From an uncultured bacterium (GTDB lineage: Bacteria; Hydrogenedentota; Hydrogenedentia; Hydrogenedentales; JAEUWI01): a stretch of DNA of 18,894 nt. The stretch is taken from positions 1-18,894 of the forward strand of contig CAXBPH010000128.1 of the NCBI GenBank assembly GCA_963977445.1, read 5' to 3'. Position 1 is the first letter of the stretch. Each line of letters opens with the position of its first letter. The notes beneath the pieces were generated by a model that saw nothing but the letters and a program-made list of their open reading frames with translations, was not told the origin of the DNA and ran no database searches. The translations under genes were made by a program, and so were the position numbers. Of the stretch, positions 1 through 18,600 are shown in pieces.

Positions 1-2
1 CC

Positions 3-1274
3 CAGCTTCGCGAACTGACCCGGCAGGCCTATGCGAATTGTCCTTACAATGATGAGCAATTGGCGACGGCGAAAAAACTGGAGGCGGAACCGAATATCGT
101 ACCCAGCACGGTCGGCGCGGGCTCGGTCATTAAACATGTCGTCTATATCATCAAAGAAAATCGCACCTACGATCAGGTACTCGGTGATATGCCCCAGGGC
201 AACGGCGACCCACGCATTTGTATCTTTGGCCGGGAGATTACGCCCAACCACCATGCCCTCGCCGAGCAATTCGTGTTGCTCGACAATCTGTACTGTGACG
301 CGGAAGTCAGCGTCGATGGACACCAATGGAGCAACGCGGCCTACGCCACCGACTTTACGGAAAAGATTTGGCCGGCCTCGTATGGCGGCAAGGGCAACGG
401 TCCCTTCACCGATGCGGGGACGCCGGCCTCGGGATACATGTGGGATCTCTGCAAGCGCAAGGGCCTCACCTATCGCAGCTACGGCGAGTTCGCCCGGCGC
501 TTGAGTGAAGGGGAACCCATGACTACCCTGGCCGCTGGCCTGGTGGGCCACGTGGCACCGAACTACCTGAGTTGGGGTGCCCGCGACACGGAGAATGCCG
601 CCGAGTTTATTCGCGAATTTAACGACTACGTGACGCACTACGACAGCGCCGACCCCGAAAAGCGCCTGCCCAGCTATACGGTCCTCGCCCTGCCCGAAGA
701 TCACACCAAAGGGGGGAGCCCCGGCCAGCCTACCATTCAGGCGGCCGTCGCCAGCAACGATCTCGGCCTCGGTATGATCGTGGAGGCCATCAGCCACAGT
801 CCCTATTGGCCCGAGACCGCCATCTTCGTCATCGAAGACGATGCCCAGAACGGCTCCGACCATGTGGATGCCCGACGGACGATTGGTTTCGTCATCAGCC
901 CCTACACACGGCGGGCGTCGGTCGATAGCACCTTCTACACGACCAGTTCCATGTTGCGGACCATGCAGCTCCTCCTGGGATTGCCGCCCATGAGCCAATT
1001 CGACGCCTCTGCCAACCCCATGTACCGCAGTTTCACCAACGTGGCCGACAACACGCCCTACACCAAGTTGGATGCCAACATCGACATCAACGCCCTGAAC
1101 GAAAAGACGGCCCTCGGTGCGCAGGAATCGCTGGAGATGGATTTCAGCACCTTCGACGAAATGCCCATGGACGAGTTTAACCGCATAATCTGGGCCCTCG
1201 CCAAAGGGCCGGATAGTGAGATGCCCTTGCCCGTGCACCGCTTTGTGGCCGCCAGTATCGTCGGTGGAGAATAA
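3..1274 (+). CDS. Phosphoesterase / alkaline-phosphatase-superfamily domain protein (C-terminal part of a probable YncE beta-propeller-phosphoesterase fusion), 5'-truncated
   Basis: Frame is open from position 3 (QLRELTRQAYANCPYNDEQL...), so the TTG at 60 is probably not the true start. Family motifs: IKENRTYDQVLGD, PNHHALAEQFVLLDNLY, VSVDGHQW, LPEDHT, EDDAQNGSDHVDARR. Confidence 0.85.
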   Translation, partial: QLRELTRQAYANCPYNDEQLATAKKLEAEPNIVPSTVGAGSVIKHVVYIIKENRTYDQVLGDMPQGNGDPRICIFGREITPNHHALAEQFVLLDNLYCDAEVSVDGHQWSNAAYATDFTEKIWPASYGGKGNGPFTDAGTPASGYMWDLCKRKGLTYRSYGEFARRLSEGEPMTTLAAGLVGHVAPNYLSWGARDTENAAEFIREFNDYVTHYDSADPEKRLPSYTVLALPEDHTKGGSPGQPTIQAAVASNDLGLGMIVEAISHSPYWPETAIFVIEDDAQNGSDHVDARRTIGFVISPYTRRASVDSTFYTTSSMLRTMQLLLGLPPMSQFDASANPMYRSFTNVADNTPYTKLDANIDINALNEKTALGAQESLEMDFSTFDEMPMDEFNRIIWALAKGPDSEMPLPVHRFVAASIVGGE

Positions 1275-1353
1275 AGAACACTTCCTTTTTCTCCACGACT
1301 CGCGTTTGCGGGGGCCCAGTTAGCGTGGCATTGTTGGCTACCTGGGTGCGGTT

Positions 1354-2757
1354 CTACTCCTTCAGCCCCCAACCGACATCTAGCCGGTCGGTGCCAAGTC
1401 CCCCGTCGTCGACGTAATTGGTCCCCACGCTGTAAACGCGAATTCCAGCGTCATCATACGAATAAAGATAGGGCTTGCCGGAAAAGGGGTCATTGTGCAG
1501 GACGTCGAGGTAGTCCGGCACCAGTGCCTCCAAGGTGTCTGGATAGCGGTCATGGTCTTGGTGGTATAGCTTGGTTGCCAGGGCGATTTGGGCGGTCCTC
1601 AGTGAGATTTCAGTGTCTATTACTTGCAGGAGTGAGCGCATCCCATTGGGAAGCATCATGCTCGCATAGGGCCCCATGCTGGAATCGGTGTCTTTGCTCA
1701 GTGTCTTTAATTTGTCGAGCAACGCTTTGTGTTCGTATGCGGGTACCGTTGTTGCGGTGACCATCAAGTTCATAACCCGAATATAATTGGTCGCGTAGTA
1801 GTCACGCAGGAAATAGGCAGTCAATCTTGATAGCGGATCTTCGATAACCACGACCACCGGACGAAGACGCCAGAGTGAATCAATCCCCGCAAGACGCTCC
1901 CATTCAAAGGCTCTGGTCAAATACTCGGGGTGAACGGCCTCCTCCAGCGCGCCACAAAATTCTCGTATTCCCTGCTCGGAATAATGGGCGTCTTCCTCCA
2001 CGAGTTGCGCCGTTTGCACGGCAATATTCCTGATCGCAGTCGCTATCATTTCATTGATCAAGGTATGCCCGGAATTGCTGACGTGATGGGCGATCTTCAG
2101 GATAGTCGCGGCGGTATGGAGCACCTCGTCGTCGTGTCCGTCCTTGTGCCACAGGATCGCCCGCAGGCCCAGTAGATTGGCGCCACCACGAAGCGCCAGA
2201 AGATTTGGAACCGCATACATGACGAAGAATTCGTTGGGGTCGTAGTTGTTGGCAATCCAGGTGCCGAGCCTCGGTACAGGTGCATTGCCTATGGCTATCA
2301 ATTCTTCGATGAGGGCGGCATTTCGAGCGCAGGCATCCCGAACACCCGCTTCTACCTCCGGGTTCCAGTTTTCCAGAATCCGGGGCGGGTTAATAATTAA
2401 CGCCTCCCCTAGAATTTCCATACCACCGGCCAAGACGGGGGCATCAAAGTCATCCGGCGTCAAGCCCATGAAGAAATCAACAACCCGTTGGCCTTCCACA
2501 TCTTCTTCGGCCCCACCGACGTCGGCGCTCTCCAGAAAGTCATCCACCGTGACGAAAGCACTTTCCGCCTTCAGATTCGCCAATTCCGTCTCCAGCATAT
2601 GTGCGAAATGAACCGTCAGGTAACCGAATGCCGCGAGCAGGACCAGGGCAGCGCTAACGACGAACGTCCCGAGACGTAGCCACATTCGTTTCAAATTGAT
2701 GCTACGTTTTCCCCCGGTGCTGGCAGACTTTTGGAAGAGTTTTGGTATCATTGGCAA
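1354..2757 (-). CDS. Hypothetical membrane-anchored alpha-helical protein with GspG/pseudopilin-like C-terminal motif
   Basis: 467-aa ORF (alternative ATG at 2751). Basic N-terminus, one TM segment (LGTFVVSAALVLLAAFGYL), C-terminus ALATKLYHQDHDRYPDTLEALVPDYL..DPFSGKPYLY..YSVGTNYVDDGG resembling the T2SS G C-terminal signature. Confidence 0.75.
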   Translation of the reverse strand: MPMIPKLFQKSASTGGKRSINLKRMWLRLGTFVVSAALVLLAAFGYLTVHFAHMLETELANLKAESAFVTVDDFLESADVGGAEEDVEGQRVVDFFMGLTPDDFDAPVLAGGMEILGEALIINPPRILENWNPEVEAGVRDACARNAALIEELIAIGNAPVPRLGTWIANNYDPNEFFVMYAVPNLLALRGGANLLGLRAILWHKDGHDDEVLHTAATILKIAHHVSNSGHTLINEMIATAIRNIAVQTAQLVEEDAHYSEQGIREFCGALEEAVHPEYLTRAFEWERLAGIDSLWRLRPVVVVIEDPLSRLTAYFLRDYYATNYIRVMNLMVTATTVPAYEHKALLDKLKTLSKDTDSSMGPYASMMLPNGMRSLLQVIDTEISLRTAQIALATKLYHQDHDRYPDTLEALVPDYLDVLHNDPFSGKPYLYSYDDAGIRVYSVGTNYVDDGGLGTDRLDVGWGLKE

Positions 2758-2861
2758 TGCCCCATGGTGAAAATGCCAATCCAGTTTCCTGGATATTTGA
2801 TAACGTCATGATAATAGCAATCCCAACCCAGTTCAATGTGCCCACCTTGCAATGAGCACCA

Positions 2862-2888
2862 GCCCATGCCGTCCATGCCGTCCATGTC
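2862..2888. repeat. Three tandem 9-bp units (gcccatgcc-gtccatgcc-gtccatgtc)
   Basis: Read directly; intergenic. Confidence 0.7.
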
Positions 2889-2948
2889 GACGTTCCAACA
2901 ACGATGTCCGTCCAGGCCGGACCACTTGGTATCTCATCGCGGGCGAAA

Positions 2949-2975
2949 GTGGGTTAGGCATCTTGCCTGACATAC
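2949..2975. repeat. Solo REP-like motif (gtgggttaggcatcttgcctgacatac)
   Basis: Small hairpin aggca-tct-tgcct; resembles both arms of the 9838-10032 inverted pair. Confidence 0.4.
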
Positions 2976-3240
2976 ATATCCGCAGCATGTAGAGACACCA
3001 TTGTCCGGCGTCGTTTCCTTGGGATTTCAAGGGAAACGCCCCGGTTCAAGTCCACGTTGAAGCGTTGCGTGTGCATTGCCTCAGCCTGGAAGGCCAAGCC
3101 ACTTTGGTGGGCATTGCAGATACACGGCAGAACTACCTGCAACCGAATCGTGAAAGCCTCGCACGCCCAACGACATGCGTTAGTTCGCACCTATGTTTCA
3201 TCTCCATCCCGCGCCACCAGATGGATTTCGCCTGTGAATC

Positions 3241-4668
3241 TCAAGCCAATACCTTTTCCACGACATTCCCCGCCACGTCGGTGAGTCGGATATCACGGCC
3301 CTGATGGCGGTAGGTCAAGCGTTCGTGGTTGATGCCGAGGCAATGTAGAATGGTCGCCTGCAAGTCGTGGACGTGGATGGGGTCTTCGGTAATCTGAAAT
3401 CCCAGTTCGTCGGTGGCGCCTACCACGGTGCCGGGCTTGATGCCGCCGCCGGCCATCCACAGGCTGAAGGCGAAGGGGTGGTGGTCGCGCCCTTCTTGTC
3501 CCGGTGTGTTGCCACGGCGAATCTCGTTCATGGGGGTGCGGCCGAATTCGCCGCCCCAGATGACCAGGGTTTCGTCGAGCAGGCCCCGTTGCTTGAGGTC
3601 CTTAATCAGGGCGGCGCAGGGCTGGTCGGTCATGGCGCAGTTAATCTTCAGGTTCTTGTTCAATTCCGAATGGTCGTCCCACGTGGAGTGGTAGAGCTGG
3701 ACGAAGCGTACACCCCGCTCCACCATGCGCCGTGCCATGAGGCAGTTGGTGCCGAAGGGCGTGGTCGTGTCCTTGTCGAGTCCATACATGGTTTTTGTGG
3801 CCTCGCTCTCATCGGAAAAATCCATGAGCCCCGGCACAGAAAGCTGCATATTGAAGGCCATTTCATAGGATGCAATGCGCGACGCGATTTCCAGGTCTCC
3901 CGTTTGCTCCAGGTGGTGGGCATTGAGGTCGCCGAGGGCGTCGATGCGGGCCCGCTGTGACTCGGCGTTTACGCCCTTGGGATTGTCGAGGTAGAGAACG
4001 CCCTCGCCGTCGCTGCGGAAGGTGACACCCCGGTGGGAGGCAGGCAGGAAGCCGTTGGACCAGTTGGAGGAGCCGCCGTCGATGCCCTTGCCCGAGTCGG
4101 AAGTGAGGACGACAAAGCCGGGCAGGTTGTCACATTCACTGCCGAGGCCATAGCTCACCCAGCTTCCCATGGCGGGGTGTCCGAATCGGGGCACGCCGCA
4201 GTTCATGAGTAGCTGAGCCGGGTGATGGTTGCTCACGTCGGTGTGCATGGAATGGATCATGCAAATTTCATCCGCGATGGAACCGGTGTGGGGCAGAAAG
4301 TCGGAAAACTCCATGCCGCTCTCCCCGTAAGGCTGGAAGGTGCGGGGGCTGGCGAATACCTGGGCCGTGCTCTTCATGAGCTGATCCTGGAGGCCCTTCA
4401 TGAAGTGTTCGGGCACGGGCGTGCCGTGCCATTTCGTCATGATGGGCTTGGGCGCGATGAGATCGTATTGGGAAGGCGCACCAGCCATGAAAAGGTAGAT
4501 CACATTCTTCGCCCGGGGCGCAATATGGGGCACGAGGGACTCCAGCGCCTGGGCCGCCCGCCCTTCCCGGGAGAGGAGGCCGTGGAGCGCGATGGTGCCG
4601 ATGCCGCCCGCGCAGGAGCGGAAGAAATCTCGGCGGCCTTGAATATCTCGGTAATGAGCGTGGTCCAT
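3241..4668 (-). CDS. DUF1501 domain-containing protein with Tat-like signal
   Basis: N-terminal GRRDFF twin-arginine motif; AKNVIYLFMAGAPSQYD, CLMARRMVERGVRFVQL, WDDH, LLDETLVIWGGEFGRTP, GRDHHP, HVHDLQATILHCLG are typical DUF1501 motifs. 4 bp downstream of the PSD1 gene. Confidence 0.93.
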   Translation of the reverse strand: MDHAHYRDIQGRRDFFRSCAGGIGTIALHGLLSREGRAAQALESLVPHIAPRAKNVIYLFMAGAPSQYDLIAPKPIMTKWHGTPVPEHFMKGLQDQLMKSTAQVFASPRTFQPYGESGMEFSDFLPHTGSIADEICMIHSMHTDVSNHHPAQLLMNCGVPRFGHPAMGSWVSYGLGSECDNLPGFVVLTSDSGKGIDGGSSNWSNGFLPASHRGVTFRSDGEGVLYLDNPKGVNAESQRARIDALGDLNAHHLEQTGDLEIASRIASYEMAFNMQLSVPGLMDFSDESEATKTMYGLDKDTTTPFGTNCLMARRMVERGVRFVQLYHSTWDDHSELNKNLKINCAMTDQPCAALIKDLKQRGLLDETLVIWGGEFGRTPMNEIRRGNTPGQEGRDHHPFAFSLWMAGGGIKPGTVVGATDELGFQITEDPIHVHDLQATILHCLGINHERLTYRHQGRDIRLTDVAGNVVEKVLA

Positions 4669-4672
4669 GGGG

Positions 4673-7237
4673 CTATTCCTTGGTATTAAACTCGTCCAAA
4701 TTCAAAATGACACTGCACACCATGACCCACGCGGCGCTATCGCTATCGGCGGGCAGGGATTCGAAGTTGCCCACGATGTCGGGCACCCGTTCCGACTGGT
4801 GGATCAGCCGTTCTTTTTCCTCCCCATGGAACTGATGCAGTCGCGCCCGTTCTGTTTCATCAGGCAGGCGCGCGACGCAGCGCAGGAAGGCCTGGTCCAA
4901 TCGCTGGTCCAAGGTGACTTGGCCCAGCGTTTCCTGGGCGAGACTCCGGGCCGCGTCGAAAAAGGTGACATCATTCAAGAGGTTGAGGGCCTGGAGGGGC
5001 GTGTTGGATCGCTCCCGCCGGGTGCAGGCCCGGTTGGTGTCGGGGAAATCGAAATTGACGGACTGGCCAAAAGGCGACGTGCGCTGTATGAAGGTGTAGA
5101 GTCCCCGGCGATAGCGGTCCGGCCCTTCTTCCGCCACCCAGGTCTGGTCGAAGGCTTCCTTCGTCACACTGTCGGGTTGAGGGGGGCGCACGCTGGGTCC
5201 GCCGATGGCCCGATGGAGGAGGCCGCTCGCCGCGAGGGCATTGTCCCGTGTGATTTCCGCGGACAGGCGCATGCGGTTCTGGCGCGCAAGGAGGATGTTG
5301 GCGGGATCGCGCTGGCGCAGCTCGGGCCGTGCGTCGGAAGACTGGCGGTAAGTGGCGGAAAGGACCATGGTCTTGAGGAGGGCCTTTATGTCCCAGCCGC
5401 TATCCACGAAAGTGACAGCAAGCCAATCGAGCAAGTCCGGATGGCTGGGTCGCGCACCCCGGACTCCGAAATCGTCGGACGTGACGACAATGCCCCGGCC
5501 AAACAATTCTTGCCAGAGCCGGTTCACCGTGACCCGGGCCGTGAGGGGGTTCTGGCGGTCCACGATCCAACGGGCCAGGTCGAGGCGGTCGGGCGTACCG
5601 TCCGATTCGAAGGCGTGGAGTATTTCCGGCGTGCCGAGATCGACGGCCTCGCCCGGGACGCGGAAGTCACCTCGGTGCATGATGGTGGTGGGCCTGAGTT
5701 CCCGACTGGCGCGCATGGTGGGCGCGCGGCTCATGGGCGGCAGGGCCTTCTTCAGTTCGTCAATTTGCGCGACCAGTTCACGGACTTTCAGCTCAGAGAA
5801 GCGGGTCTCGTTGACGAGACTCCCCCGGGCGAAGAAATAGTCCTGCAATCGAATGCGCTCTTCCACCGTCCGCTCCGCGATGGGCTTGCGCGAAATGTAG
5901 GTACCCTCCAGTTGGCCTTCGCCATAGCTCTGGCCCCAGACCAGGCCGAGCACTTCCCAGGCACGGTCCCAGTGATAATTCCCCTCGCCAGGATGATCGG
6001 CAGCCCACTGGGCCTTTTCTTCCCATTGGGCCTGGAGATCGGCGAGTTCTGTCGCGACCGGTTCGAGGAGCGCTTCCCGGGCCGCCACATAAGTCGCCCA
6101 GGCGGCCTCATAGGCTTCGCGCTGACCGGGGAGGGGCGCATCGATATTTACTTCGTCGGCATTGTTGAAAAAGGCGTAAAACTGATAGAACTCGCGCTGA
6201 GAGATGGGGTCATACTTATGATCGTGGCATCGGGCGCATTCCAGCGTTTCGCCGAGCCATACCGTGCCCACCGATATGACCCGCTCCGTGGTCTGCATGA
6301 CGCGATACTCTTCGAGGTCGGCACCGCCCTCGCGATTGGCCAGCGTATTGCGAAGGAATCCCGGACCCATCTTTTCCTTGATGGTGCCATCGGGCACCAG
6401 GTCGCCCGCGATTTGTGCGATGGAAAACCCATCGAAAGGCATGTTTTCATTCAGCGCGTCCACCACCCATTGGCGATAGCGCCACGCCTGGGGCCGATGA
6501 AAGTCAGACAGGAAGCCATCGCTGTCCGCGTAACCCGCGAGGTCGAGCCACCACCGGGCCCACTTTTCGCCAAAGTGGGGCGAAGCCAGGAGCCCATCCA
6601 CGGCGCGGTCATAGGCATCGGGGCGATTGTCGAGCACGAAGGCTTCGACGGCCTCCGGCGATGGGGGCAAGCCCGTAAGGTCGAGGGACACACGCCGCAG
6701 CAAGGTGCGCCGATCCGTTTCAGGAGATGGCCCGGTGCCCGCCTCTTCCAATCGGGCCAGGGTAAAAGCATCAATTGGATTTCGGACCCAGGCGGCATCC
6801 GATATCTGGGGCGTGGCAGGTAGTTTCGGCGCCACATAGGCCCAATGGGTTTCCCACGTGGCCCCGCCATCGATCCACGCGCCGAGACGTTCGATCGCTT
6901 CCAACGAAAGTTCATCGCCCGTCTCCTCCGGGGGCATGCGGTCATCGCCCGTGGCGGTGATGCGCTGGAAAAGAGCGCTCGTGTCGCGATTTCCTGGCAC
7001 GATTGCGGCGACGCCCGATTTCAACAGACTTCGGGCACCTTCTTCCGTATCCAGCCGAAGGCCGCCTTTTCGCGTGGCGCTGTCGGCCGCGTGGCACTTA
7101 AAACAGTGGTCGGCGAGTAGGGGGAGGATGTCGCGGTTGAAGCGAAGTGGCGGAGATGGGGTATCCGCCATGGCCAGCGGATATTGGACCGTCGCCAGAA
7201 AAAGGATAAAAGCCAAGATTCCCGTTGTTTTTCTCAC
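4673..7237 (-). CDS. PSD1 and planctomycete cytochrome c domain-containing protein (PSCyt1-DUF1549-DUF1553)
   Basis: GTG start with GAGGT RBS; signal peptide; FNRDILPLLADHCFKCH, NPIDAF, LLRRVSLDLTGLPP, WWLDLAGYADSDG, ECARCHDHKYDPI, NPLTARVTVNRLWQELFGRGIV, HPDLLDWLA, SNTPLQALNLLN; two CxxCH motifs. Confidence 0.93.
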   Translation of the reverse strand: MRKTTGILAFILFLATVQYPLAMADTPSPPLRFNRDILPLLADHCFKCHAADSATRKGGLRLDTEEGARSLLKSGVAAIVPGNRDTSALFQRITATGDDRMPPEETGDELSLEAIERLGAWIDGGATWETHWAYVAPKLPATPQISDAAWVRNPIDAFTLARLEEAGTGPSPETDRRTLLRRVSLDLTGLPPSPEAVEAFVLDNRPDAYDRAVDGLLASPHFGEKWARWWLDLAGYADSDGFLSDFHRPQAWRYRQWVVDALNENMPFDGFSIAQIAGDLVPDGTIKEKMGPGFLRNTLANREGGADLEEYRVMQTTERVISVGTVWLGETLECARCHDHKYDPISQREFYQFYAFFNNADEVNIDAPLPGQREAYEAAWATYVAAREALLEPVATELADLQAQWEEKAQWAADHPGEGNYHWDRAWEVLGLVWGQSYGEGQLEGTYISRKPIAERTVEERIRLQDYFFARGSLVNETRFSELKVRELVAQIDELKKALPPMSRAPTMRASRELRPTTIMHRGDFRVPGEAVDLGTPEILHAFESDGTPDRLDLARWIVDRQNPLTARVTVNRLWQELFGRGIVVTSDDFGVRGARPSHPDLLDWLAVTFVDSGWDIKALLKTMVLSATYRQSSDARPELRQRDPANILLARQNRMRLSAEITRDNALAASGLLHRAIGGPSVRPPQPDSVTKEAFDQTWVAEEGPDRYRRGLYTFIQRTSPFGQSVNFDFPDTNRACTRRERSNTPLQALNLLNDVTFFDAARSLAQETLGQVTLDQRLDQAFLRCVARLPDETERARLHQFHGEEKERLIHQSERVPDIVGNFESLPADSDSAAWVMVCSVILNLDEFNTKE

Positions 7238-7342
7238 ACGCTTACCTCGTGGATACGATCACGCCGCCCATAAATATCACTACCCCATACGGTACAGGGC
7301 GCATTGTGGAAACACAACTCTTCAATCTGCATTTTCAGGGGC

Positions 7343-7377
7343 TTGTAAAATCAGTAAAATCAGTATACACTGATTTT
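7343..7377 (+). promoter_or_regulatory. Sigma70-type promoter with overlapping palindromic operator upstream of the hgcC-like/arsM operon
   Basis: TTGTAA (7343-7348) N17 TACACT (7366-7371). Perfect inverted repeat AAAATCAGT-atac-ACTGATTTT (7356-7377) plus direct repeat GTAAAATCA x2 (7345-7362), in an AT-rich patch. Confidence 0.7.
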
Positions 7378-7403
7378 GTGATGATATTGGAAAGGATAGA
7401 ACA

Positions 7404-7679
7404 ATGAAAAAAGATGGTTGTTGCGGCGGGGAATCAGATTGTTCCATGGGTGGATTCAAGGTGGAGGCCATCGTCAGTGTGGATGAGCGTGGCCAGATGA
7501 TCCTCCCGAAGGAATTCCGGGCCCGGGCCAACATTGAAGCCGGTGAAAAGCTGGCCTTGGTCAGCTTTGAAAACAACGGGGCTTTCTGCTGCATGTGTCT
7601 GATAAAGACCGAGGCCCTCGCGGGTATGGTCCGCGAGCATCTCGGTCCCATGATGAACGAACTCGGCCAGACTTCCTGA
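7404..7679 (+). CDS. hgcC: Cys-rich AbrB/MazE/SpoVT-fold protein resembling HgcAB-associated protein HgcC
   Basis: AAGGA RBS; AbrB signature VSVDERGQMILPKEFRARANIEAGEKL; N-terminal CC...C and internal CCMC; KVEAIVSVDERGQM..CC..LIK..L.GMV...LGP matches the HgcC family as I recall it. hgcAB is not in the window. Confidence 0.78.
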   Translation: MKKDGCCGGESDCSMGGFKVEAIVSVDERGQMILPKEFRARANIEAGEKLALVSFENNGAFCCMCLIKTEALAGMVREHLGPMMNELGQTS

Positions 7680-7709
7680 ACCCGTCTGTCCGCTAAAGGA
7701 GCCAACCCA

Positions 7710-8540
7710 ATGGAAGCGACGAAGATACACGAAGAAGTCCAGAAGCAATACGGGAAAATTGCGAAAGCGGGCAGCAGTTGTTGTGGCGGCTGCGGATGTG
7801 CCCCACCGGACGAGGCGGCCCGAAACGTGGGGGCCAACATCGGGTATAGCGATGCGGAGATGGATGCCGTACCCAAAGGGGCCAACCTGGGTTTGGGCTG
7901 TGGAAATCCCACGGCACTGGCCTCCCTGAAGGAAGGCGACACGGTGCTGGATCTTGGCTCCGGGGCGGGCTTTGATTGTTTTCTGGCGGCGCGGGAAGTG
8001 GGCGAAACAGGGCGTGTTATCGGTGTGGACATGACGCCCGCCATGGTTGCGCGCGCCCGGGCCAATGCGGACAAAGGCGGTTACGGAAACGTGGAATTTC
8101 GTGAGGGCCATATCGAAGCCCTGCCGGTGGAAGACAATAGCATCGACGTAATCATTTCCAATTGTGTAATCAACCTCTCACCGGACAAGCCACAAGTCTT
8201 TCGTGAAGCCTACCGCGTCCTGAAACCCGGGGGCCGCATCTTTGTCTCCGATCTGGTGTTGTTGAAGCCACTACCAGGGCTGCTTCGACGTTCTGTGGCG
8301 CTCTATGCGGCCTGCATCGGTGGCGCACTTCCCAAGGGAGCCTATCTTGATGCCATGGGGCAGGGAGGCTTCGAGACGGTGGAGATTCTTGGCGAATCTG
8401 CCTACGCCATAGACAATCTAGTGGCAGACCCCAGCGTGGGGCACGTCGCCCGCCTGGTGGCGCGGGTGCCCTACGTCAAGCGACTGGTGGCCTCTGTGGT
8501 GAGCCTGAAAGTTAGTGCGACCAAGACATCGTGCCCGTGA
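7710..8540 (+). CDS. arsM: Arsenite S-adenosylmethionine methyltransferase
   Basis: AAAGGAG RBS; N-terminal CCGGCGC, ANLGLGCGNP, SAM motif VLDLGSGAGFD, GVDMT, VIISNCVINLSPDK, AACIGGAL (conserved ArsM cysteines). Confidence 0.92.
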   Translation: MEATKIHEEVQKQYGKIAKAGSSCCGGCGCAPPDEAARNVGANIGYSDAEMDAVPKGANLGLGCGNPTALASLKEGDTVLDLGSGAGFDCFLAAREVGETGRVIGVDMTPAMVARARANADKGGYGNVEFREGHIEALPVEDNSIDVIISNCVINLSPDKPQVFREAYRVLKPGGRIFVSDLVLLKPLPGLLRRSVALYAACIGGALPKGAYLDAMGQGGFETVEILGESAYAIDNLVADPSVGHVARLVARVPYVKRLVASVVSLKVSATKTSCP

Positions 8541-8716
8541 TTTGGCCTGAGCGATTAGTGCGTGTCCGGTTCGTCATATGTTTTTGAGATGAGAGAGGAG
8601 AAACCCCGCTGCCCGGAGGGGATCCATCAGAGGTATGTATCGAGTGCCCATAGCGAAAGCCATCGCCCGAAGCGTACAATGGCTCCTTTCTACAGGTTCG
8701 TCACGGAAGGATAGTT

Positions 8717-9574
8717 ATGAAATCATGTATTAGTTATTGGACACTTGGCGGCTTTGGGGGCGAGGTGCCCGTGGTCGAAGCGGCCCAGGCAGCCCACGAT
8801 TTGGGCTTTGATGCGATCGAACTTTGTTACGGTGCGGGCGAGTTGGTGCCAGAGGCCGACCCGGCCGTGTTTGCGGAGATGCGTTCGGCGTGCGAGAAAA
8901 TCGGCATTGCCCTGCCCTCCCTGTGCTCGGGCAACTATTGGATTCAATCCCTGAGTGCCGACGATGAAGCCGAACGTGCGGAAGCCCTGAAATTTTCCGA
9001 GGCTTACATTGCGTGCGCCGCGGCCCTCGGTGCCGATACGGTTCTCATGTTGCCCGGCACGGTGGAAGTGCCCTGGAATCCAGAGCGGCCCATCGTCCCG
9101 GCGAAAGTTGCCTGGGAACAATCCCAGCGGTCGCTGGCAGCGTTGATTCCCGTGGCGGAAAAGCACGGTATCACGATTGCCCTGGAAAATGTCTGGGGTA
9201 AGTTTCTCACCGGACCCTTCGAATTTGCGGCCTTTCTGGATGCCGTCGATTCTCCCTGGGTGAAGTGCTACTTCGATGTGGGCAACGTAGCGATCACGGG
9301 CTATCCCGAGCACTGGATAGAAATCCTGGGCGATCGCATCGCCCGGGTCCACGTGAAGGGCTTTAAAGGCCGCAATGGTGGGGGAACGATGGATGATTTC
9401 ACCGAGAGTCATTTCGACAGCACCATCAATTGGACGGCGGTGCTGGGGGCCCTCCGTGGGATTGGCTACGACAGCTACCTCACGGCCGAGCTCATCGTGA
9501 GTGCCAAGGGCCTGCCCGACGCAGACTTGGCGGCGAAGGCGGCGAAGGAACTGAAGGAATTGATGGCGATGTAG
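8717..9574 (+). CDS. Sugar phosphate isomerase/epimerase (xylose-isomerase-like TIM barrel, AP endonuclease 2 family)
   Basis: GAAGGA RBS; GFDAIEL, metal-ligand motifs IALENVW, YFDVGN, RVHVK, LTAE. Confidence 0.88.
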   Translation: MKSCISYWTLGGFGGEVPVVEAAQAAHDLGFDAIELCYGAGELVPEADPAVFAEMRSACEKIGIALPSLCSGNYWIQSLSADDEAERAEALKFSEAYIACAAALGADTVLMLPGTVEVPWNPERPIVPAKVAWEQSQRSLAALIPVAEKHGITIALENVWGKFLTGPFEFAAFLDAVDSPWVKCYFDVGNVAITGYPEHWIEILGDRIARVHVKGFKGRNGGGTMDDFTESHFDSTINWTAVLGALRGIGYDSYLTAELIVSAKGLPDADLAAKAAKELKELMAM

Positions 9575-9636
9575 GGGGTGGGTTTAACCGCAGAGAACAC
9601 AGAGCAGCCATTGGCCGCAACTGAAAAAATTCTTAC

Positions 9637-9802
9637 CACGAAGGGCACGAAGAGCACGAAGAAAAAAGAGAGAGACGGGCGGAGTTTCCGAAACAAATTT
9701 CCTGCCTGTGCGTGAAAGACAGACTTTACCTGCGCTGAACACAATCTTATGAGACCTCTTCTTCCTATCACTTTTTTCTTCGTGCTCTTCGTGTCCTTCG
9801 TG
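9637..9802. repeat. 32-bp inverted repeat built of 9-bp units (cacgaagRg) around a 102-bp non-coding spacer
   Basis: 9637-9668 cacgaagggcacgaagagcacgaagaaaaaag versus 9771-9802 cttttttcttcgtgctcttcgtgtccttcgtg: 31/32 complementary. Confidence 0.9.
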
Positions 9803-9837
9803 CTAGAACGGAAAAAGAAGTCTTTCGTTCAGGTTGT

Positions 9838-10032
9838 CCAACAGGGGGTTGGCCATACCTGGCCGACATACGGCCCACTTCAGGTTCCACAGGGCCCGTG
9901 ATGTTGTAAGGCGAGCCACAAGTTTCTCCCCCTATTCTCTTTGGCGTCCGACGTTTACTGGACAAGGTTTGGTGGGGCGTTGACTATCTCCGTACCCGTT
10001 GTGTCAGGCAGGAATGCCCGCCCCCCTGTTGG
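9838..10032. repeat. Degenerate inverted REP-like pair (REPIN/MITE-like), 31-bp arms
   Basis: 9838-9868 versus 10002-10032: outer 11 bp perfect (ccaacaggggg / ccccctgttgg), 25/31 overall by manual alignment. Confidence 0.65.
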
Positions 10033-10129
10033 TCTTGTCGGGTAGGATTATGACACGGCCTACGACTTGTCGTGTCCTTGCTTGGGTACCACCCCAGAGA
10101 TATCTATTTGTGGCCAGAAAATAGGTTGT

Positions 10130-11380
10130 TTATCGGGTCACTTCCACCAGGAACATCTGCCGCGTGCGCGTCTTATCGTCGGCGATGGTGGGGAAGACGA
10201 TCTGATTGCTTGCCCGATTCCAACAGGGGGCGGCGTCGATGCGTAGCTCGCCCGAGGTCCAATGGTCCACGGGGAAGGGGCCCGCGCGAAGCACGTCGCT
10301 GGTCTTGCGGTTGAGGAAGACATAGGCGTTTGCTTTGCCAATACGGTGGCCGTTGGCGAGCCAGGTGCCATCGGGAGAAAGGGCCACGTCGCCGCCGGGG
10401 TTCGCGAATATGCTGGGGTCCTCCAGCACCTCGACCACTTGTTGCGTATCGGTGTCGTAAATAATCTGTTCGTCGCCCCGTTTGCCAATCATGCGGTGAC
10501 CGTCCGCCCATTCCGGGTGGCCGCCGATGTGTTGGGGGTGCAGGGTGAGGCCCGTTCCATCGGTGTTGATGGTGAAGGGCACATCCAGCCGCTTCTCTCG
10601 GTCTTCAAAATCGCCCCGGACGAAGAAATAGACCCGGTCTCCATCGCGATTGTTCAGGGTATGGTTGATGAACAATTCCTTCTCATCCACATCCGGTCGG
10701 GTGGGGCGCAGGGCGTCTGCGAGTTGCTCGAAAGAGACCAGCAAAGATTTTTCACCCGTCGCGATAGCCACCTTGAAGATGCCATCGTCTTTCGGATGGC
10801 GAACCCCGACGGTCCAGTCATAAACCTCTGGATAACCCGTCACAGGACGCAAGCGGGCGAGTCGTCCATAGTTTAAGCCGAGGAAGAATTCACCACGCTG
10901 TGCAACGCCTCCATTGGCGAAAGGGGTATCCTCAAATCGGAATTCCCGAATGCGTTTTCCCGTCGTGATATCCAGCAACACCGTGAAAATACGATTGGTC
11001 TCGGGGTCACGGTCGTTAAAGATGAGTTCCCGGTCGGGGGCGGCGGGATTCCAATAGAACATGGTGCCCTGCTGAAAATTCCAGGCACCCGTAGTGTCTA
11101 TCTGGCGTACCGCGAAATTATTTTGCGCATCCAACAAGACAATGTCCGCACGCTCTTTTGCCGTAGGCATATGGTCCTGAAAGTTCGTGCGCAGGGCCAC
11201 CAGATAGCGACCGTCGCCATTCCACGGAGTGTTTTGCACATGGCCGATGTACCCGAAGAAATGATGCTGGGGCCCAAAGGTAATTTGTCGACCTTTCAGC
11301 GGCTCGGCAACGAGGCTTGACGCGTGTAACAGGACCAACGCGATCAGCGCCTGCCCAACACGGCGATACAGGCTCCTCAT
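10130..11380 (-). CDS. Secreted beta-propeller protein (TolB-like / oligogalacturonate-lyase-like), function uncertain
   Basis: Signal peptide; HHFFGY, PWNGDGRY, AWNFQQG, FINHTLNNRDGDRVYF, GHPEWADG, LSPDGTWLA, RIDAAPCWNR propeller-blade motifs. ATGA overlap with the upstream gene's stop. Confidence 0.75.
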   Translation of the reverse strand: MRSLYRRVGQALIALVLLHASSLVAEPLKGRQITFGPQHHFFGYIGHVQNTPWNGDGRYLVALRTNFQDHMPTAKERADIVLLDAQNNFAVRQIDTTGAWNFQQGTMFYWNPAAPDRELIFNDRDPETNRIFTVLLDITTGKRIREFRFEDTPFANGGVAQRGEFFLGLNYGRLARLRPVTGYPEVYDWTVGVRHPKDDGIFKVAIATGEKSLLVSFEQLADALRPTRPDVDEKELFINHTLNNRDGDRVYFFVRGDFEDREKRLDVPFTINTDGTGLTLHPQHIGGHPEWADGHRMIGKRGDEQIIYDTDTQQVVEVLEDPSIFANPGGDVALSPDGTWLANGHRIGKANAYVFLNRKTSDVLRAGPFPVDHWTSGELRIDAAPCWNRASNQIVFPTIADDKTRTRQMFLVEVTR

Positions 11381-13620
11381 TGTTCCGCCTCCATCACGAT
11401 GCGCAAGCCAAAGCCCACGCCAGGCGCGTAACCGTAGCGGGCAGCGCTTCGGATGAACTCCGCCTTACTCTTGGCCTGCCCACCCCTGAGGACCTTCGCG
11501 CCATTACCCGAAGGGCCCATGGGGTCGATGATCGGGTCCGTACTGTATTTACGACCCACGTTGTCCAGACAATACTGGGCCTGATTCCCATGCATATCAT
11601 AGAGGCCCCAGGGATTGGGCGGATACTGGGCCACGGGCACGTTTTTACCGATGTAGTCCCCTCCGGGATTGAAGCGGGTGGGTTCGTGCCCATCAAAATT
11701 AGCTTGGTCCGTCGAGATGGTCTCGCCCGTGTAGAAAGCCGTTGTGGTGCCGGCGCGGCAGGCATATTCCCATTCGGCTTCCGTGGGCAATCGAAACGTA
11801 CGGCCTGTCTTCTGGCTGAGTAACTTACAAAACTCCTCGCCCTCAAACCAGGTGACTTCGTGGGCTGGAAAATTTTCCTCGCCTTCCCGGGTGCGCCGTT
11901 CGGTGGGGCCCATGACGGTGACGTACTGGTGGTTCGTGATGAGGGTCGTGCCCATGAAGAAATCGCGACTGATGGTTACCGGTTGCTGGGGGTGTTCGTC
12001 CCTTTCTCCACCCTCGCGCTCGGGGGAACCCATGAGAAACGTGCCCGCCGGGATGGGGGCGAGATCGAGATGGGCGATGTCGCCGAGGTGGACCCGTTGC
12101 ACCGCACCGTGTGATTCAAGACGGACCTCCATGGCGGCCATGGCTGCGTCCCGTGCGGCCACCTGCTCCTCTGCCTCTGCCTTTATCCGGGTATCGTATT
12201 CCGACTTTTGCGTGGCGCAGCGGGTCAGGGCATCCTCCTGTAATTGTCGGAAAACGGCCGCGTCTATCTGCACGTCCGCTTCCGCCACGTTGGGATCGGT
12301 GCCGTTGAGGAATTCCTCCAGGTTGGGATAGCCATCCCCATCGGGGTCCGCCAGGTAATCCTCCATCGCAACCGTGTCGAGGTCGTGCTCCAACTCCCAG
12401 GTGTCGGGCATTCCATCCAAATCCGTATCCGTTGGTGGGACTTCGGCCATGAGGACGGGCCAGCCACCTACATCCGTTGGGGAGTCGATGATGCGGCCTG
12501 TCCCGGTCCGAATCTCTTCCATGAGTCGCCGGTCGGCACTGTCCTGTTTCGGTAGCGTGGCCCCGGCAAACGCGAGGACGCGATCCCGTGCTTCCACGGC
12601 GGACTCGGTCGCGACCGCCACTGTCGTAAAGGGAAGGTCTACCATGACGGTATCCTGTAAGGTGTCCGCATCCGAATCTCGGGCGGGCTTGAGTAAGAGG
12701 CGGTTGTTCTCGGTCTGGGCTGCCTCCCCTTCCAACACGTTGCCATCGAAATAGAGACGGGGGGCATCATCGCCCGCCTCAAAGACGTAGGTACGCATCG
12801 ATTTCCTGGTGGAGGGGCCTGCTTTGAAATAATTGTTAATGTAATTAATGGAACCCGGGCCTTCGGTGGTGTAGCCGCCCCGATAGCCCCAGTTGTAGAC
12901 GATGTTATTGCGGAAATCGAGGAGTATGTTGTTGACCCGGGCGTTGCGCGCTGCGTTGTGGGCGTAGATGTTGTGATGGAGCGAAAAGCCACCCTTGCCA
13001 TCGAGGATGGAACCCTTGCTGTGTTCCCCCTTGGGGTGGAAGGAACGGGATAGGCCCTCGGCAATGATGCTCCACTGGACCGTCAAATTCGACGCGCCAA
13101 AGGTGCTAAATACTTCGTCTACCGCCCAGGACATGGAGCAATGGTCGATGATGCTATTGGAGCCGCCAAAGACGCCGACGGTCAACTGTTCTTCCTGTGG
13201 GCGGTCGCCCGCGCGGAAACGAAGATGGCGGAGGATGATATCGTGGGTGCTGATGACGACCATGTGGTCACGGAAGGCGATACCGTCACCCGGAGCGCTC
13301 TGCCCAGCCACGGTGAGGAAAGGATTCTGTATGTAGAGGTCGGCCTTCAGGTCGATGGTGCCACTTGTGCGAAAGAGGATGTAGCGGGGGCCTGTGGCAT
13401 CCACGGCCGCGCGGAAACTGCCAGCGATAGGGTCCTCTTTTCCCGGAACGTAATCCTCCAGGGCAGTAACGAAATGAACCGTGCCGCCCCGTCCTCCCGG
13501 TGTGGTCGCCCCATAGCCTTCGGCTTCAGGAAAAGACCGGAGCAAGGTCTCTTGTCCTGCTACTGGAAGTTCAAATAGAAGGGCGACAATGAGGGCCCCG
13601 ACCCAAATCTTGATTGACAT
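11377..13620 (-). CDS. PL1-type pectate lyase fused to a C-terminal FGE-sulfatase (SUMF1/EgtB/PvdO) fold domain
   Basis: Likely start ATG 13620 (MSIKIW.., signal peptide, CAGGA RBS). SFPEAEGYGATTPGGRGG, GSFRAAV, TVAGQSAPGDG, IIDHCSMSWAVDE, HHNIYAHN..RNAR; Ca-binding-like DTDLDGMPDTWE / DPDGDGYPNLEEFLN; then PAGTFLMGS, RLPTEAEWEYACRAGT, NPWGLYDMHGN, VLRGG. Confidence 0.85.
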   Translation of the reverse strand: MSIKIWVGALIVALLFELPVAGQETLLRSFPEAEGYGATTPGGRGGTVHFVTALEDYVPGKEDPIAGSFRAAVDATGPRYILFRTSGTIDLKADLYIQNPFLTVAGQSAPGDGIAFRDHMVVISTHDIILRHLRFRAGDRPQEEQLTVGVFGGSNSIIDHCSMSWAVDEVFSTFGASNLTVQWSIIAEGLSRSFHPKGEHSKGSILDGKGGFSLHHNIYAHNAARNARVNNILLDFRNNIVYNWGYRGGYTTEGPGSINYINNYFKAGPSTRKSMRTYVFEAGDDAPRLYFDGNVLEGEAAQTENNRLLLKPARDSDADTLQDTVMVDLPFTTVAVATESAVEARDRVLAFAGATLPKQDSADRRLMEEIRTGTGRIIDSPTDVGGWPVLMAEVPPTDTDLDGMPDTWELEHDLDTVAMEDYLADPDGDGYPNLEEFLNGTDPNVAEADVQIDAAVFRQLQEDALTRCATQKSEYDTRIKAEAEEQVAARDAAMAAMEVRLESHGAVQRVHLGDIAHLDLAPIPAGTFLMGSPEREGGERDEHPQQPVTISRDFFMGTTLITNHQYVTVMGPTERRTREGEENFPAHEVTWFEGEEFCKLLSQKTGRTFRLPTEAEWEYACRAGTTTAFYTGETISTDQANFDGHEPTRFNPGGDYIGKNVPVAQYPPNPWGLYDMHGNQAQYCLDNVGRKYSTDPIIDPMGPSGNGAKVLRGGQAKSKAEFIRSAARYGYAPGVGFGLRIVMEAEQ

Positions 13621-13697
13621 GTGTGCCGTGTCCTGACCGTAACATAGAAAGACCCATTTGAAAACAACGGCCATTGTGCCGTTGGAGGGGCCTTGAT

Positions 13698-14693
13698 TCA
13701 ACCCTCCGGGGCGGCACGCAGAACGATGAGTAGCATATAGAGCAAATAGCCGGCGAAGAGCACCGCACCTTCCCGTCGGGAAAGCACGCCACCAGAGCGC
13801 ACAAAGGGGATCAGTGCCACCGAAAAGAGGATCATGAGCGGGACGCCCACGTAGGCGGCCTCCCACCCGATAGGCTGTGGCCCTACGATGGCGCAGCCCC
13901 CCAGGATGGCAAGTATATTGAAGATGTTGGATCCGATGACGTTGCCCACGGCCACGTCCGCATTGCCCCGCCACGCGGCGACAATGGAAGTCACCAGTTC
14001 CGGCAGAGAGGTTCCCACGGCGACAATGGTGAGTCCGATAATTAACTCGCTAACCCCGAGCGAAAGGGCGAGGTCCGTGGCGCTGGTAACAAAATACCGA
14101 GCGCCGAAAATCAGGAGAACCAGCCCCATCAGCCCCAGAAAAAGTTGGAACAGAAAGGAACCCATCGTCATCGTGCGCGGCGTTTCGGTGAGGAGGGAGG
14201 AGACAACTTCGGCTTCCGCCCGTGTCTGAACTTCTTGTTGCGCTGCCCGGTCTTTGAAATAGGCCGCAGTGAGATACACAGCGAGCAAGAGCAGACAGCC
14301 GACACCCAGGGGGCGAGTCACGGCACCGACAGTCCAAAAACCAATCAGGGGAATTACACAGATGGCCAGGGCGACGAAGAGGTCTCGTCGCACCGCCGAA
14401 AAGGCAATCCGGATCGGACGAATCATGGCCGTGAGCCCGAGGATAAAGGCGATATTGAAGATATTGGAGCCAATGACATTGCCGATACTGATACCCGCGT
14501 TGCCCGAGAGCGTGGCCGACATACTCGCGCCCAGCTCCGGCGAGGAGGTGCCAAAGCCCACCACGGTCAGTCCGACAAAAAGGGGGGAGACGCCCGCACG
14601 TAAGGCCAGGGTCGAAGCGCCCCGCACAAAGAGTTCCGCGCCCAGGGTGAGCACCGCCACGGAAACACCAAGGATAACCAGCGAAATCAGCAT
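13698..14693 (-). CDS. Calcium/sodium antiporter (CaCA family, YrbG-like)
   Basis: Likely start ATG 14693 after GGAG; highly hydrophobic; two alpha repeats GFGTSSPEL..GNVIGSNIFN and AVGTSLPEL..GNVIGSNIFN. Confidence 0.92.
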   Translation of the reverse strand: MLISLVILGVSVAVLTLGAELFVRGASTLALRAGVSPLFVGLTVVGFGTSSPELGASMSATLSGNAGISIGNVIGSNIFNIAFILGLTAMIRPIRIAFSAVRRDLFVALAICVIPLIGFWTVGAVTRPLGVGCLLLLAVYLTAAYFKDRAAQQEVQTRAEAEVVSSLLTETPRTMTMGSFLFQLFLGLMGLVLLIFGARYFVTSATDLALSLGVSELIIGLTIVAVGTSLPELVTSIVAAWRGNADVAVGNVIGSNIFNILAILGGCAIVGPQPIGWEAAYVGVPLMILFSVALIPFVRSGGVLSRREGAVLFAGYLLYMLLIVLRAAPEG

Positions 14694-14715
14694 TCCGAAC
14701 CACGCTCCAAAAAGA

Positions 14716-14823
14716 CGCCCATCCAAATTTCGGGTTCGCCCGATCACGCCGCTACGGAGTGGACGTGGTCAGAGAACCCAAAGGTGGGTGACGCAGGCCG
14801 AGAGCCTGCGTCCCTTTATACCA
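14716..14823. other. Densely base-paired intergenic segment (candidate structured RNA or leader) upstream of the antiporter
   Basis: Stems 14716-23/14783-90, 14730-43 (TTCG loop), 14744-68, 14790-14812 (9-bp perfect stem); minus-strand TGgTATAAA at 14823-14815. Confidence 0.35.
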
Positions 14824-15039
14824 TATGGGCGCGCAGTTTATTCGTTTTCGGCGGCGGAAAGGGAAAATAAATAGGTGGCGTCTTTGGTGCCCACCCGTCG
14901 ACCATGAAGGGCCTGTCTTCCGCGCGGGAGGCTGCTGTCTCATCAGGCGTGGCAAATACGCGGAAATAGCCTTGGTCTGACGCGAAATCAAGATCAGGTA
15001 CTACGCCCTGGGAGGGCAGGATTTATATGTCGCCTGACT

Positions 15040-15069
15040 TTGACAAAATAACCAGGTTCCGTGCATCAT
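15040..15069 (+). promoter_or_regulatory. Putative sigma70 promoter of the protease gene
   Basis: TTGACA (15040-15045) N18 CATCAT (15064-15069); the -10 box is weak. Confidence 0.35.
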
Positions 15070-15098
15070 GAGGGGCGGAACACGCGAACAAACTGGGG

Positions 15099-17159: not shown

Positions 17160-17340
17160 AACCATTCGCGGGCCATTCGATTCCCCACGGTGTCCGTCGG
17201 TATAATTGCGCCACCCAAACGTATCACCCGGTACGGGCGGTGATCTCTCCCGAAAGCCTTCCAAGGGTCTTGATAGTTGGACCAATCCGATTTCGGGTGT
17301 ATATATTCGCCCCACCGTTCCTCATTTAAAGGAGTTTTCT

Positions 17341-18306
17341 GTGAAAAAGAAACAGCTGGTTCTGCTGCTTGCCCTGATTGCACTGGGCGTCGTTTTTTAT
17401 CTTCAAGGTGCCGTTGCGGGCGTCATTGTATTCGTAATGTTCCTGCTGGGCCTCGGGGTGGTCCAAACGGGCAAACTGGTGGCCTCACGCCGGGGCGTCG
17501 AGGAACTGAAAACGCTCTGTCCCAAATATGGCTACGAAACCATGATCGAAAAATCCCGGTCCCGTATGCCCGAAGGCGATAGCTTTTCCTTCGTTGTGCT
17601 CGGGGATACCCGAAAGCGCATGAAAGTCGCCACCAAGGTTTTTGCCGGGGCCAAAGAAGAAAATCCCGTGGTCATCTTTCACACTGGCGATATTGTCCGC
17701 GGTGGCACGCCCCCCGAATACTACGAGAGCCTGACACCCCTCATTGACCAGGTGGACCCGGTGCCCGTGCTTTCCGTGCCGGGCAATCATGAGCGCGGGG
17801 CCTGGCGGGACTATGCGGCCTTCAAGGCGCTCCATGGTGGCGATGAGTTTTGCTTTGAGCTCGGAGATTGCCTCTTTGTGGGCATCAACAACAGCACCCA
17901 GAAAGGCGTGACCGATGCGGGCATGGCCTACCTGGAAAAGGCACTGAGTAATTCGACGGCCACCCACAAGTTTGTCTTTTACCATATTCCGCCGCTGTTT
18001 TTTGAAGCCACCTTCGTCAATGACCGCCCCCGTCGCGGCTACAAAAATAACGAACAGGAATCCCATGCGCTTTTTGTTAAGCACGGGGTTACGGAAGTCT
18101 ATATGGCCCATATCCATGGCTACGCGACCCACGTCAAAGACGGCGTGCGCTATACCCTCACGGCAGGAGGCGGTGCGAAACTCAGTCCCCGCATCGACGA
18201 ATCGGGACGTTTTCACCACTACCTCGTGCGCCATGTGAAGGGCGGCGAAGTGGGGCGTGAGTTGATTAAACTGGATGGAAGCGAGTTTGTGCGCCTCGAG
18301 GGGTAG
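17341..18306 (+). CDS. Calcineurin-like metallophosphoesterase with N-terminal membrane anchor
   Basis: GTG 17341 with AAGGAG RBS; two hydrophobic segments; LGDTR, HTGDIV, PGNHE, FYHIPP, MAHIH motifs. Confidence 0.88.
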   Translation: MKKKQLVLLLALIALGVVFYLQGAVAGVIVFVMFLLGLGVVQTGKLVASRRGVEELKTLCPKYGYETMIEKSRSRMPEGDSFSFVVLGDTRKRMKVATKVFAGAKEENPVVIFHTGDIVRGGTPPEYYESLTPLIDQVDPVPVLSVPGNHERGAWRDYAAFKALHGGDEFCFELGDCLFVGINNSTQKGVTDAGMAYLEKALSNSTATHKFVFYHIPPLFFEATFVNDRPRRGYKNNEQESHALFVKHGVTEVYMAHIHGYATHVKDGVRYTLTAGGGAKLSPRIDESGRFHHYLVRHVKGGEVGRELIKLDGSEFVRLEG

Positions 18307-18316
18307 GGCAGGTTTT

Positions 18317-18343
18317 TATGGGACCTATTGGACGAATGAGACT
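18317..18343. repeat. Three degenerate 9-bp units, inverse of the terminal array
   Basis: tatgggacc-tattggacg-aatgagact; the first unit is the exact reverse complement of ggtcccata. Confidence 0.6.
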
Positions 18344-18358
18344 TAGGGCCGATAAATC

Positions 18359-18559: not shown

Positions 18560-18600
18560 GGAATCAATTCGCAACCTGCGGTTACCCACCGGAATATAAC

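Follow-up and report, generated by a model that had tools for sequence, protein, structure and literature searches.

A cysteine-rich AbrB-type protein of the HgcC family as candidate autoregulator of an arsM operon in an uncultured Hydrogenedentota bacterium

An 18,894-nt stretch of contig CAXBPH010000128.1 (positions 1-18,894; assembly GCA_963977445.1), from an uncultured bacterium of the Hydrogenedentota and referred to below as the window, carries a compact two-gene unit on its forward strand. The first gene (7404..7679, +) encodes a cysteine-rich protein of AbrB/SpoVT fold and 91 amino acids (aa), P0001, which was placed in the hgcC family by profile matches, alignment and an AlphaFold2 (AF2) model. 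The second, arsM (7710..8540, +), begins 30 nt further on and encodes a 276-aa arsenite S-adenosylmethionine methyltransferase (P0002). P0001 has cysteines at positions 6, 7, 13, 62, 63 and 65, arranged as CC, C and CCMC clusters. P0002 scores 345.7 bits against the arsenite methyltransferase model NF008823 (cut-off 263), and across 48 co-located homologs its C64, C152 and C202 are invariant and an N-terminal cysteine is near-invariant; we take these to be the catalytic cysteines of studied ArsM enzymes. Two purine-rich motifs read from the sequence precede the genes, a ribosome-binding-like GAAAGGA ahead of hgcC (7390..7396, +) and a ribosome-binding site AAAGGAG ahead of arsM (7695..7701, +), the latter inside the 30-nt gap. 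A preliminary description of this DNA had proposed that arsM is controlled here by the small protein instead of ArsR. Its account of the two-gene unit holds for the reading frames, the cysteine clusters and the gap alike, and so does its statement that the window lacks arsR, acr3, arsC and hgcAB, the other large open reading frames belonging to unrelated Pfam families (ArsB was not searched separately).

By its profile scores, P0001 is an ordinary member of HgcC, a family that is catalogued and uncharacterised. It matches the NCBIfam HgcC model NF040962 at 113.4 bits (cut-off 70) over model positions 2-70 of 70, which makes the HgcC annotation of the preliminary description correct. Membership of the AbrB superfamily is likewise borne out by sequence. 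Pfam MazE_antitoxin (PF04014; 27.4 bits, cut-off 24.7) and the AbrB looped-hinge model TIGR01439 (29.4 bits, cut-off 28.3) both match above their cut-offs, and a profile of 111 family members retrieves from the PDB only AbrB-family DNA-binding proteins (5itj, SpoVT, Sso7c4 and AbrB; best E-value 3.6e-4). MazE_antitoxin is the sole Pfam match of P0001 at E <= 0.01, and the protein contains no HTH_5 or HTH_20 winged-helix domain. Residues D27, R29, G30, Q31, P35 and K36 are invariant and lie within the stretch that aligns with AbrB-family structures. In the AF2 monomer model (predicted local distance difference test score 78.9), a disordered tail (1-13) is followed by a strand (17-25), a helix (36-41), two strands (49-57 and 60-68) and a second helix (69-88); strand, loop, helix and two strands is the order expected for an AbrB-type domain. 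C62, C63 and C65 sit on the last strand of the model, and the family conserves the C-terminal helix, in which an LGP motif is near-invariant. Searched with a profile, 1.84 billion representatives yielded 371 clusters at E <= 1e-10.

Directly ahead of hgcC is a predicted operator array (7347..7377, no strand assigned), defined by exact repeats and conserved in relatives. It consists of three exact AAAATCAGT boxes, two in direct orientation (7347-7355 and 7356-7364) and one inverted (7369-7377). The array coincides with a candidate promoter. The -35-like TTGTAA (7343..7348, +) aligns with the TTGACA/TTGCAA of two close relatives, L007 and L087; the -10-like TACACT (7366..7371, +) lies 17 nt past the -35, has TATACT at the same place in those two loci, and is overlapped by the third box. 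Boxes two and three together make a palindrome of 9+9 nt, its halves 4 nt apart, that spans TACACT. This is the operator-like palindrome over the -10 box noticed in the preliminary description; it can now be seen as part of a three-box array, and the rule across the family is one of phased boxes in any orientation and not of a palindrome. The TCAG/CTGA cores of the boxes are centred at 7353, 7362 and 7371, or +10, +19 and +28 when counted from the first base of the -35. A consensus scan offers an alternative promoter, TTTTCA at 7332-7337 with TAAAAT at 7355-7360, and the array covers that pair as well. In the genome to which the window belongs (7.1 Mb, 464 contigs, 94% complete), AAAATCAGT occurs 54 times on both strands, and the window locus is the only place with at least two copies within 60 nt. 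Genome-wide there are six arrays of at least three phased cores, against 0-5 in shuffled sequence, and the hgcC array alone is A/T-rich; this phased-core scan made no additional target of a wider regulon evident in the genome.

Are the boxes conserved along with the protein? Two sets of loci bear on this question. Set 1 comprises the 80 most similar of at least 572 relatives, with one genome per species (79 loci scored), and set 2, from a scan seeded with HgcA-linked members, contributes 68 non-duplicate new loci. At close range, the box region is almost unchanged in L087, a metagenome contig whose protein is 78% identical, while the DNA on both flanks has diverged, and a recognisable version is kept in the more distant L006 (64%). 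A metagenome scan for close relatives yielded two loci only, one of them identical to the window. Across set 1, the 120 nt upstream of hgcC contain a mean of 3.6 TCAG/CTGA cores (80 regions), with at least two in every region and at least three in 68 of the 80. The corresponding means are 0.93 in 135 intergenic controls from these loci, of which 7.4% reach at least three, and 0.94 in shuffles (Mann-Whitney p = 2e-30). When spacing is measured from the pentamer centre, which removes the orientation offset, 141 of 208 adjacent pairs of cores are spaced at exactly 9 bp and 24 at 18 bp; one pair is at 10 bp and none is at 8. The context of a box is roughly AAnAATCAGAATA. A phased pair is present at 54/59 ArsM-linked and 18/18 HgcA-linked promoters of set 1.

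Relatives in both Bacteria and Archaea have a conserved predicted operator that overlaps the promoter. A TTGAC element stands within the upstream 120 nt of most bacterial regions (47/59). Counted from the -35 start, the window and its nearest relatives have their boxes at +10/+19/+28, over the spacer and the -10; the other bacterial placement, +30/+39/+48 and sometimes +57, occupies the stretch from the -10 to beyond the transcription start. The archaeal regions (21) have two or three boxes that stop some 7-8 nt short of a TATA-like element, on its upstream side, and often a further box downstream of it. In the 678 kb of set-1 locus DNA, hgcC promoters account for 55 arrays of at least three boxes; a single further array lies elsewhere, and it precedes a second, internally deleted hgcC. 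Among 75 judgeable loci seeded with ArsM, phased boxes are present in 18/21 with hgcC directly upstream and in 1/54 without it. Both counts indicate that the boxes follow hgcC, not the enzyme. As no other gene is constant at these loci, HgcC itself would be the protein that binds the boxes, and their placement on top of the core promoter makes autorepression of the operon the likely outcome.

The preliminary description had also suggested that the family is shared between arsenic- and mercury-methylation loci, and the gene neighbourhoods agree. At 149 related loci, the next gene on the same strand encodes ArsM in 68 cases and HgcA in 77; the other four include one ArsA-like ATPase. In set 1 the counts are 59/79 for ArsM and 18/79 for HgcA, with one ArsA/GET3-family ATPase and one contig end, and at the 80th locus (L024) tblastn places ArsM downstream. 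In set 2 they are 59/68 for HgcA and 8/68 for ArsM, again with one contig end. HgcA in set 1 is usually followed by an HgcB-like ferredoxin, and one HgcA was confirmed with NF040863 (456 bits). The gap between hgcC and the methyltransferase gene is mostly below 40 nt. The genes upstream of hgcC are not conserved, being drawn from many unrelated clusters that vary by locus. Judging by record titles, members of the family occur in many bacterial phyla and in several orders of archaea. A quick maximum-likelihood tree of the protein intermingles ArsM-linked and HgcA-linked members: its well-supported branches require the HgcA label to have changed three times or more, and in one pair of sisters, at 95% support, one protein is linked to ArsM and the other to HgcA.

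Some individual neighbourhoods deserve description. At L027:4968-6177, the hgcC-family gene is followed by the ArsA/GET3-family ATPase (210 bits), a third and arsenic-related partner. At L203:1215-3325, a nitroreductase/BluB-like gene stands between hgcC (125 bits) and arsM. In three Methanoregula-type loci (L038, L044 and L069), the gene directly after hgcAB encodes an ArsC-like protein of low-molecular-weight phosphatase type (Pfam LMWPc), and a CxxCxxCC-domain gene stands divergently upstream. One contig of a metagenome-assembled genome (L040:3736-9038 and L270:100-700) holds an intact hgcC-hgcA-hgcB, an opposite-strand arsR-arsD-arsA, a second box array and a decayed module in which an internally deleted hgcC (about 50 aa) is followed by an internally deleted arsM. 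From its gene content, we read this contig as pairing a live mercury module with the remains of an arsenic module.

Does HgcC stand where ArsR would be expected? The claim that it acts "instead of ArsR" is supported by its neighbours. Among the 101 small neighbours that lie between positions -2 and +3 of 79 hgcC loci, a single ArsR gene was found (at L081), versus ArsR at 10 of 50 scannable arsM loci without adjacent hgcC, where it lies at -2, -1 or +1. One further locus of those 50 has hgcC one gene away. This distribution fits a near-exclusive alternation of HgcC and ArsR in one genomic slot. Three of the arsM loci without adjacent hgcC encode a PRK04217-like small protein, one or two genes 5' of arsM (L206:1002-1304, L221:2057-2380 and L231:803-1240), and have neither hgcC nor ArsR; this protein may be another alternative regulator.

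The genome has a single HgcC (113.2 bits, the sole match above the cut-off). A genome-wide search of the 94%-complete assembly found no match to HgcA; the context from which the family takes its name, hgcAB, is thus absent from what was searched, and the next gene is arsM. HTH_5 and Acr3 matches are on other contigs. The same genome contains a classical arsR-arsC-acr3 unit (C182:10-1912) and an ArsR-led operon with an ArsM-like paralog (C152:3658-6056) that scores 185 bits, below the ArsM cut-off of 263. Two further ArsM-like paralogs are on contigs C12 and C51.

Among set-1 members, C63 is present in 100% and C62 in 93%. In the N-terminal tail, cysteine occupies position 6 in 73% and position 7 in 81% of set 1, and a second pair occupies position 17 in 56% and position 18 in 81%. 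At least two tail cysteines are found in 64/67 ArsM-linked and 62/62 HgcA-linked members, that is, in 126 of the 129 scored over both sets, 17 members having been skipped by the motif rule. Conservation of the cysteines in homologs, on which the idea of thiol-based sensing depends, is therefore extensive. The closest solved relative, 5itj, has no cysteine at the aligned positions. The pattern of the tail differs between the two groups: a vicinal CC occurs in 63/67 ArsM-linked versus 17/62 HgcA-linked members, and many of the HgcA-linked sequences inspected have CxC...C. This difference may reflect ligand preference, or phylogeny only, with which it is confounded because most sampled HgcA-linked members are Methanomicrobiales.

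We propose the following mechanism. The HgcC-family protein, as a dimer or higher-order assembly of AbrB/SpoVT type, would bind boxes 9 bp apart over its own promoter, each with a TCAG/CTGA core in an A/T-rich setting, and thereby repress the two-gene hgcC-arsM operon. The cysteine pairs of the disordered N-terminal tail, together with the CC on the last β-strand, would most likely bind a thiophilic metal or metalloid: arsenite (As(III)) or methylarsenite (MAs(III)) at the window locus, and, in members linked to hgcAB, possibly Hg(II). Once the ligand is bound, the protein would come off the DNA and methylation would be switched on; in this role HgcC would take the place of ArsR. The parts of this model differ in strength. 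Comparative sequence evidence leads us to regard DNA binding and autoregulation by the HgcC family with high confidence; that binding represses is likely from the geometry; and that the ligand is a metal or metalloid we infer from the cysteines and the partner genes. Taken whole, an autoregulated repressor of hgcC-arsM whose thiols sense As(III)/MAs(III), and possibly Hg(II), is a reading that we hold with moderate confidence.

Several observations weigh against this reading. The window protein lacks the second N-terminal cysteine pair, having G and F at positions 17 and 18, and its C13 and C65 are rare among members (2% and 10%, respectively). No 9-bp phased pair was found in 6/80 set-1 and 12/68 set-2 regions, some of which probably have misplaced start codons. 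The loci from each scan are its top 80 out of more than 540 matches and no random sample, and the protein tree is short and poorly resolved. Foldseek, searching the PDB with the monomer model, returned nothing at E <= 0.001 (AbrB 1yfb ranked 13th and SpoVT 21st), and the best hits of the same model in a wide VIA-align search were COMM domains (Z 4.8), with MraZ 1n0e at Z 3.3; neither search recovered AbrB at a significant score, and the wide one is uninformative, probably because its query was a single monomer of a domain-swapped fold. Four ArsR-family genes lie on other contigs of the genome, and they may act on the hgcC promoter. No terminator was detected after arsM in a sequence scan, so the end of the operon is not fixed. 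Finally, a non-metal effector is possible, since the only tested regulator of hgcAB, the ArsR of strain ND132, is reported in a preprint (10.1101/2022.10.17.512643) to respond to S-adenosylhomocysteine (SAH) as well as to arsenic.

The strongest rival grants that HgcC is a DNA-binding autorepressor and assigns its cysteines a different task, the sensing of thiol oxidation or persulfide, of an Fe-S cluster, of another soft metal, or of a methyl-cycle metabolite such as SAH. The precedent of ND132 counts in its favour, as do the four to six cysteines per monomer, which are enough for cluster ligation or disulfides, and the fact that most hosts are anaerobes by their record titles. However, the sole conserved partners of the family are enzymes acting on thiophilic As(III)/Hg(II), plus one ArsA-like ATPase, and its modules occur amid ars genes, with arsC after hgcAB and arsR-arsD-arsA beside them in L040. 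For SAH in particular, a 91-aa protein offers no evident pocket. We consider this explanation unlikely.

Could HgcC instead, or in addition, hand metal to the enzyme? As a metal(loid) chaperone or accessory subunit, it would pass As(III)/Hg(II) to ArsM/HgcAB in the manner of ArsD, with which it would share vicinal cysteine pairs. Its gene is translationally close to that of the methyltransferase, given the short gaps between them, and its conserved C-terminal helix with the LGP motif has no assigned role. A complex prediction for ArsM and HgcC from alignments gave no answer (score 0.00) and speaks neither for nor against binding. However, operator arrays that are conserved along with hgcC, and not with the enzyme, call for a DNA-binding role, and one protein type serves two unrelated enzymes. 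A search among longer proteins found no fused forms, which is weak evidence. The best 150 of the 371 profile matches are all 65-160 aa long. A role that is mainly or additionally that of a chaperone is, in our judgement, decidedly improbable. An antitoxin of a type II toxin-antitoxin system, of MazE/PrlF type, has next to no probability: the Pfam MazE_antitoxin match, the annotation of some relatives as 'antitoxin PrlF' and the toxin-antitoxin label used in passages of PMC10349881 suggest it, but there is no adjacent toxin gene, the next gene encodes ArsM or HgcA in 145/149 loci, and among the 101 small neighbours the one weak, sub-cut-off PemK match is three genes away.

How much of this is new? 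The preliminary description called the locus a candidate new module, which stands in part. A conserved putative transcriptional regulator directly upstream of hgcAB was noted in 112 genomes by McDaniel et al. (2020, PMC7438021); by inference, and not by comparison of its sequences, this is probably the NF040962 family. Zhang et al. (2023, PMC10349881) found a gene annotated prlF, mazE or abrB directly upstream of hgcA in 14/35 contigs and in 8/31 confirmed methylators, and proposed that it is a regulator, mainly in archaea, which they cast as a toxin-antitoxin gene. A putative regulator upstream of hgcAB was therefore already in print. The link to arsM and the operator are a different matter: the passages of these two papers that we consulted contain no operator, no cysteine analysis and no placement directly ahead of arsM, and a search of full-text literature, with subscription journals and supplements outside its scope, found no paper linking an HgcC-type protein to arsM or describing the operator.

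The surroundings of the unit in the window are of other kinds. The gene 5' of hgcC, on the opposite strand (4673-7237), encodes a planctomycete-type PSCyt/PSD1 protein; it belongs to a planctomycete-type pair, DUF1501 (527 bits) and PSCyt1/PSCyt2/PSD1, that is divergent from hgcC (3241-7237, -). The 3' neighbour of arsM, 176 nt away (8717-9574), encodes a xylose-isomerase-like TIM-barrel protein. An Rfam scan of the window matched no family, so there is no riboswitch or leader of a known family ahead of arsM. At the far end of the window, an open reading frame that runs off its end (18419-18893, -) has 9-nt repeats encoding collagen-like GPM/GPV triplets followed by LVE/LVG runs, and matches Pfam Collagen at 33.8 bits.

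What would the proposed regulator mean beyond this locus? Mercury biogeochemistry asks what controls hgcAB and what HgcAB natively does, and the control of arsM in anaerobes is no less a question. One small regulator family, sharing a single recognisable operator and standing ahead of both gene sets in many phyla, provides a concrete handle on them. The box array could serve as a sequence marker of regulated arsM and hgcAB in metagenomes. Regulators and operators that are nearly identical stand before arsM in some genomes and before hgcAB in others, and hgcAB may on that account share the signal of arsM. We suggest tentatively, as a real possibility short of a probable one, that HgcC is a new structural class of thiol-based metal(loid) sensor on the AbrB swapped-hairpin fold, which reads a 9-bp phased array in Bacteria and Archaea, and that the hgcAB of many anaerobes is wired to the same arsenic-type signal as arsM. 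If the cysteines do bind As(III)/Hg(II), a fold would be added to the short list of metalloregulator families, and a very small sensor module would become available for biosensors. A shared arsenic-type signal, if true, would suggest that what HgcAB natively does is linked to arsenic.

Comparison with known systems places the window protein closest to the HgcC proteins of hgcAB loci, with which it shares family score, size, cysteine pattern and first-gene position. It differs from them in its partner, which here and at 68/149 loci is arsM, and in residing in a genome without an HgcA match. ArsR/SmtB repressors resemble the proposed role of HgcC, that of a small autoregulated repressor encoded by the first gene of an ars unit, in the same genomic slot, and sensing As(III) via cysteine thiolates. 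However, HgcC is predicted to be of AbrB swapped-hairpin type, with no HTH_5 match, whereas ArsR/SmtB proteins are winged helices, and its predicted operator is a series of short boxes phased at 9 bp, in contrast to a single dyad. ArsD is a small ars-operon protein with vicinal cysteine pairs that acts as an arsenic metallochaperone and weak repressor; P0001 has no ArsD family match at E <= 0.1, whereas a genuine ArsD, in L040, reaches 93 bits against NF033727. With AbrB, SpoVT and MraZ, which regulate transition state and division, and with the archaeal Sso7c4 and 5itj, HgcC shares its DNA-binding domain by sequence profile, and MraZ binds several short repeated boxes. Unlike HgcC, AbrB, SpoVT, MraZ and the archaeal AbrB-like proteins have no such cysteines: those of the N-terminal tail and the CC of the last strand are specific to HgcC, as is the C-terminal LGP helix. 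To our knowledge, no metal(loid)-sensing regulator of AbrB fold is known.

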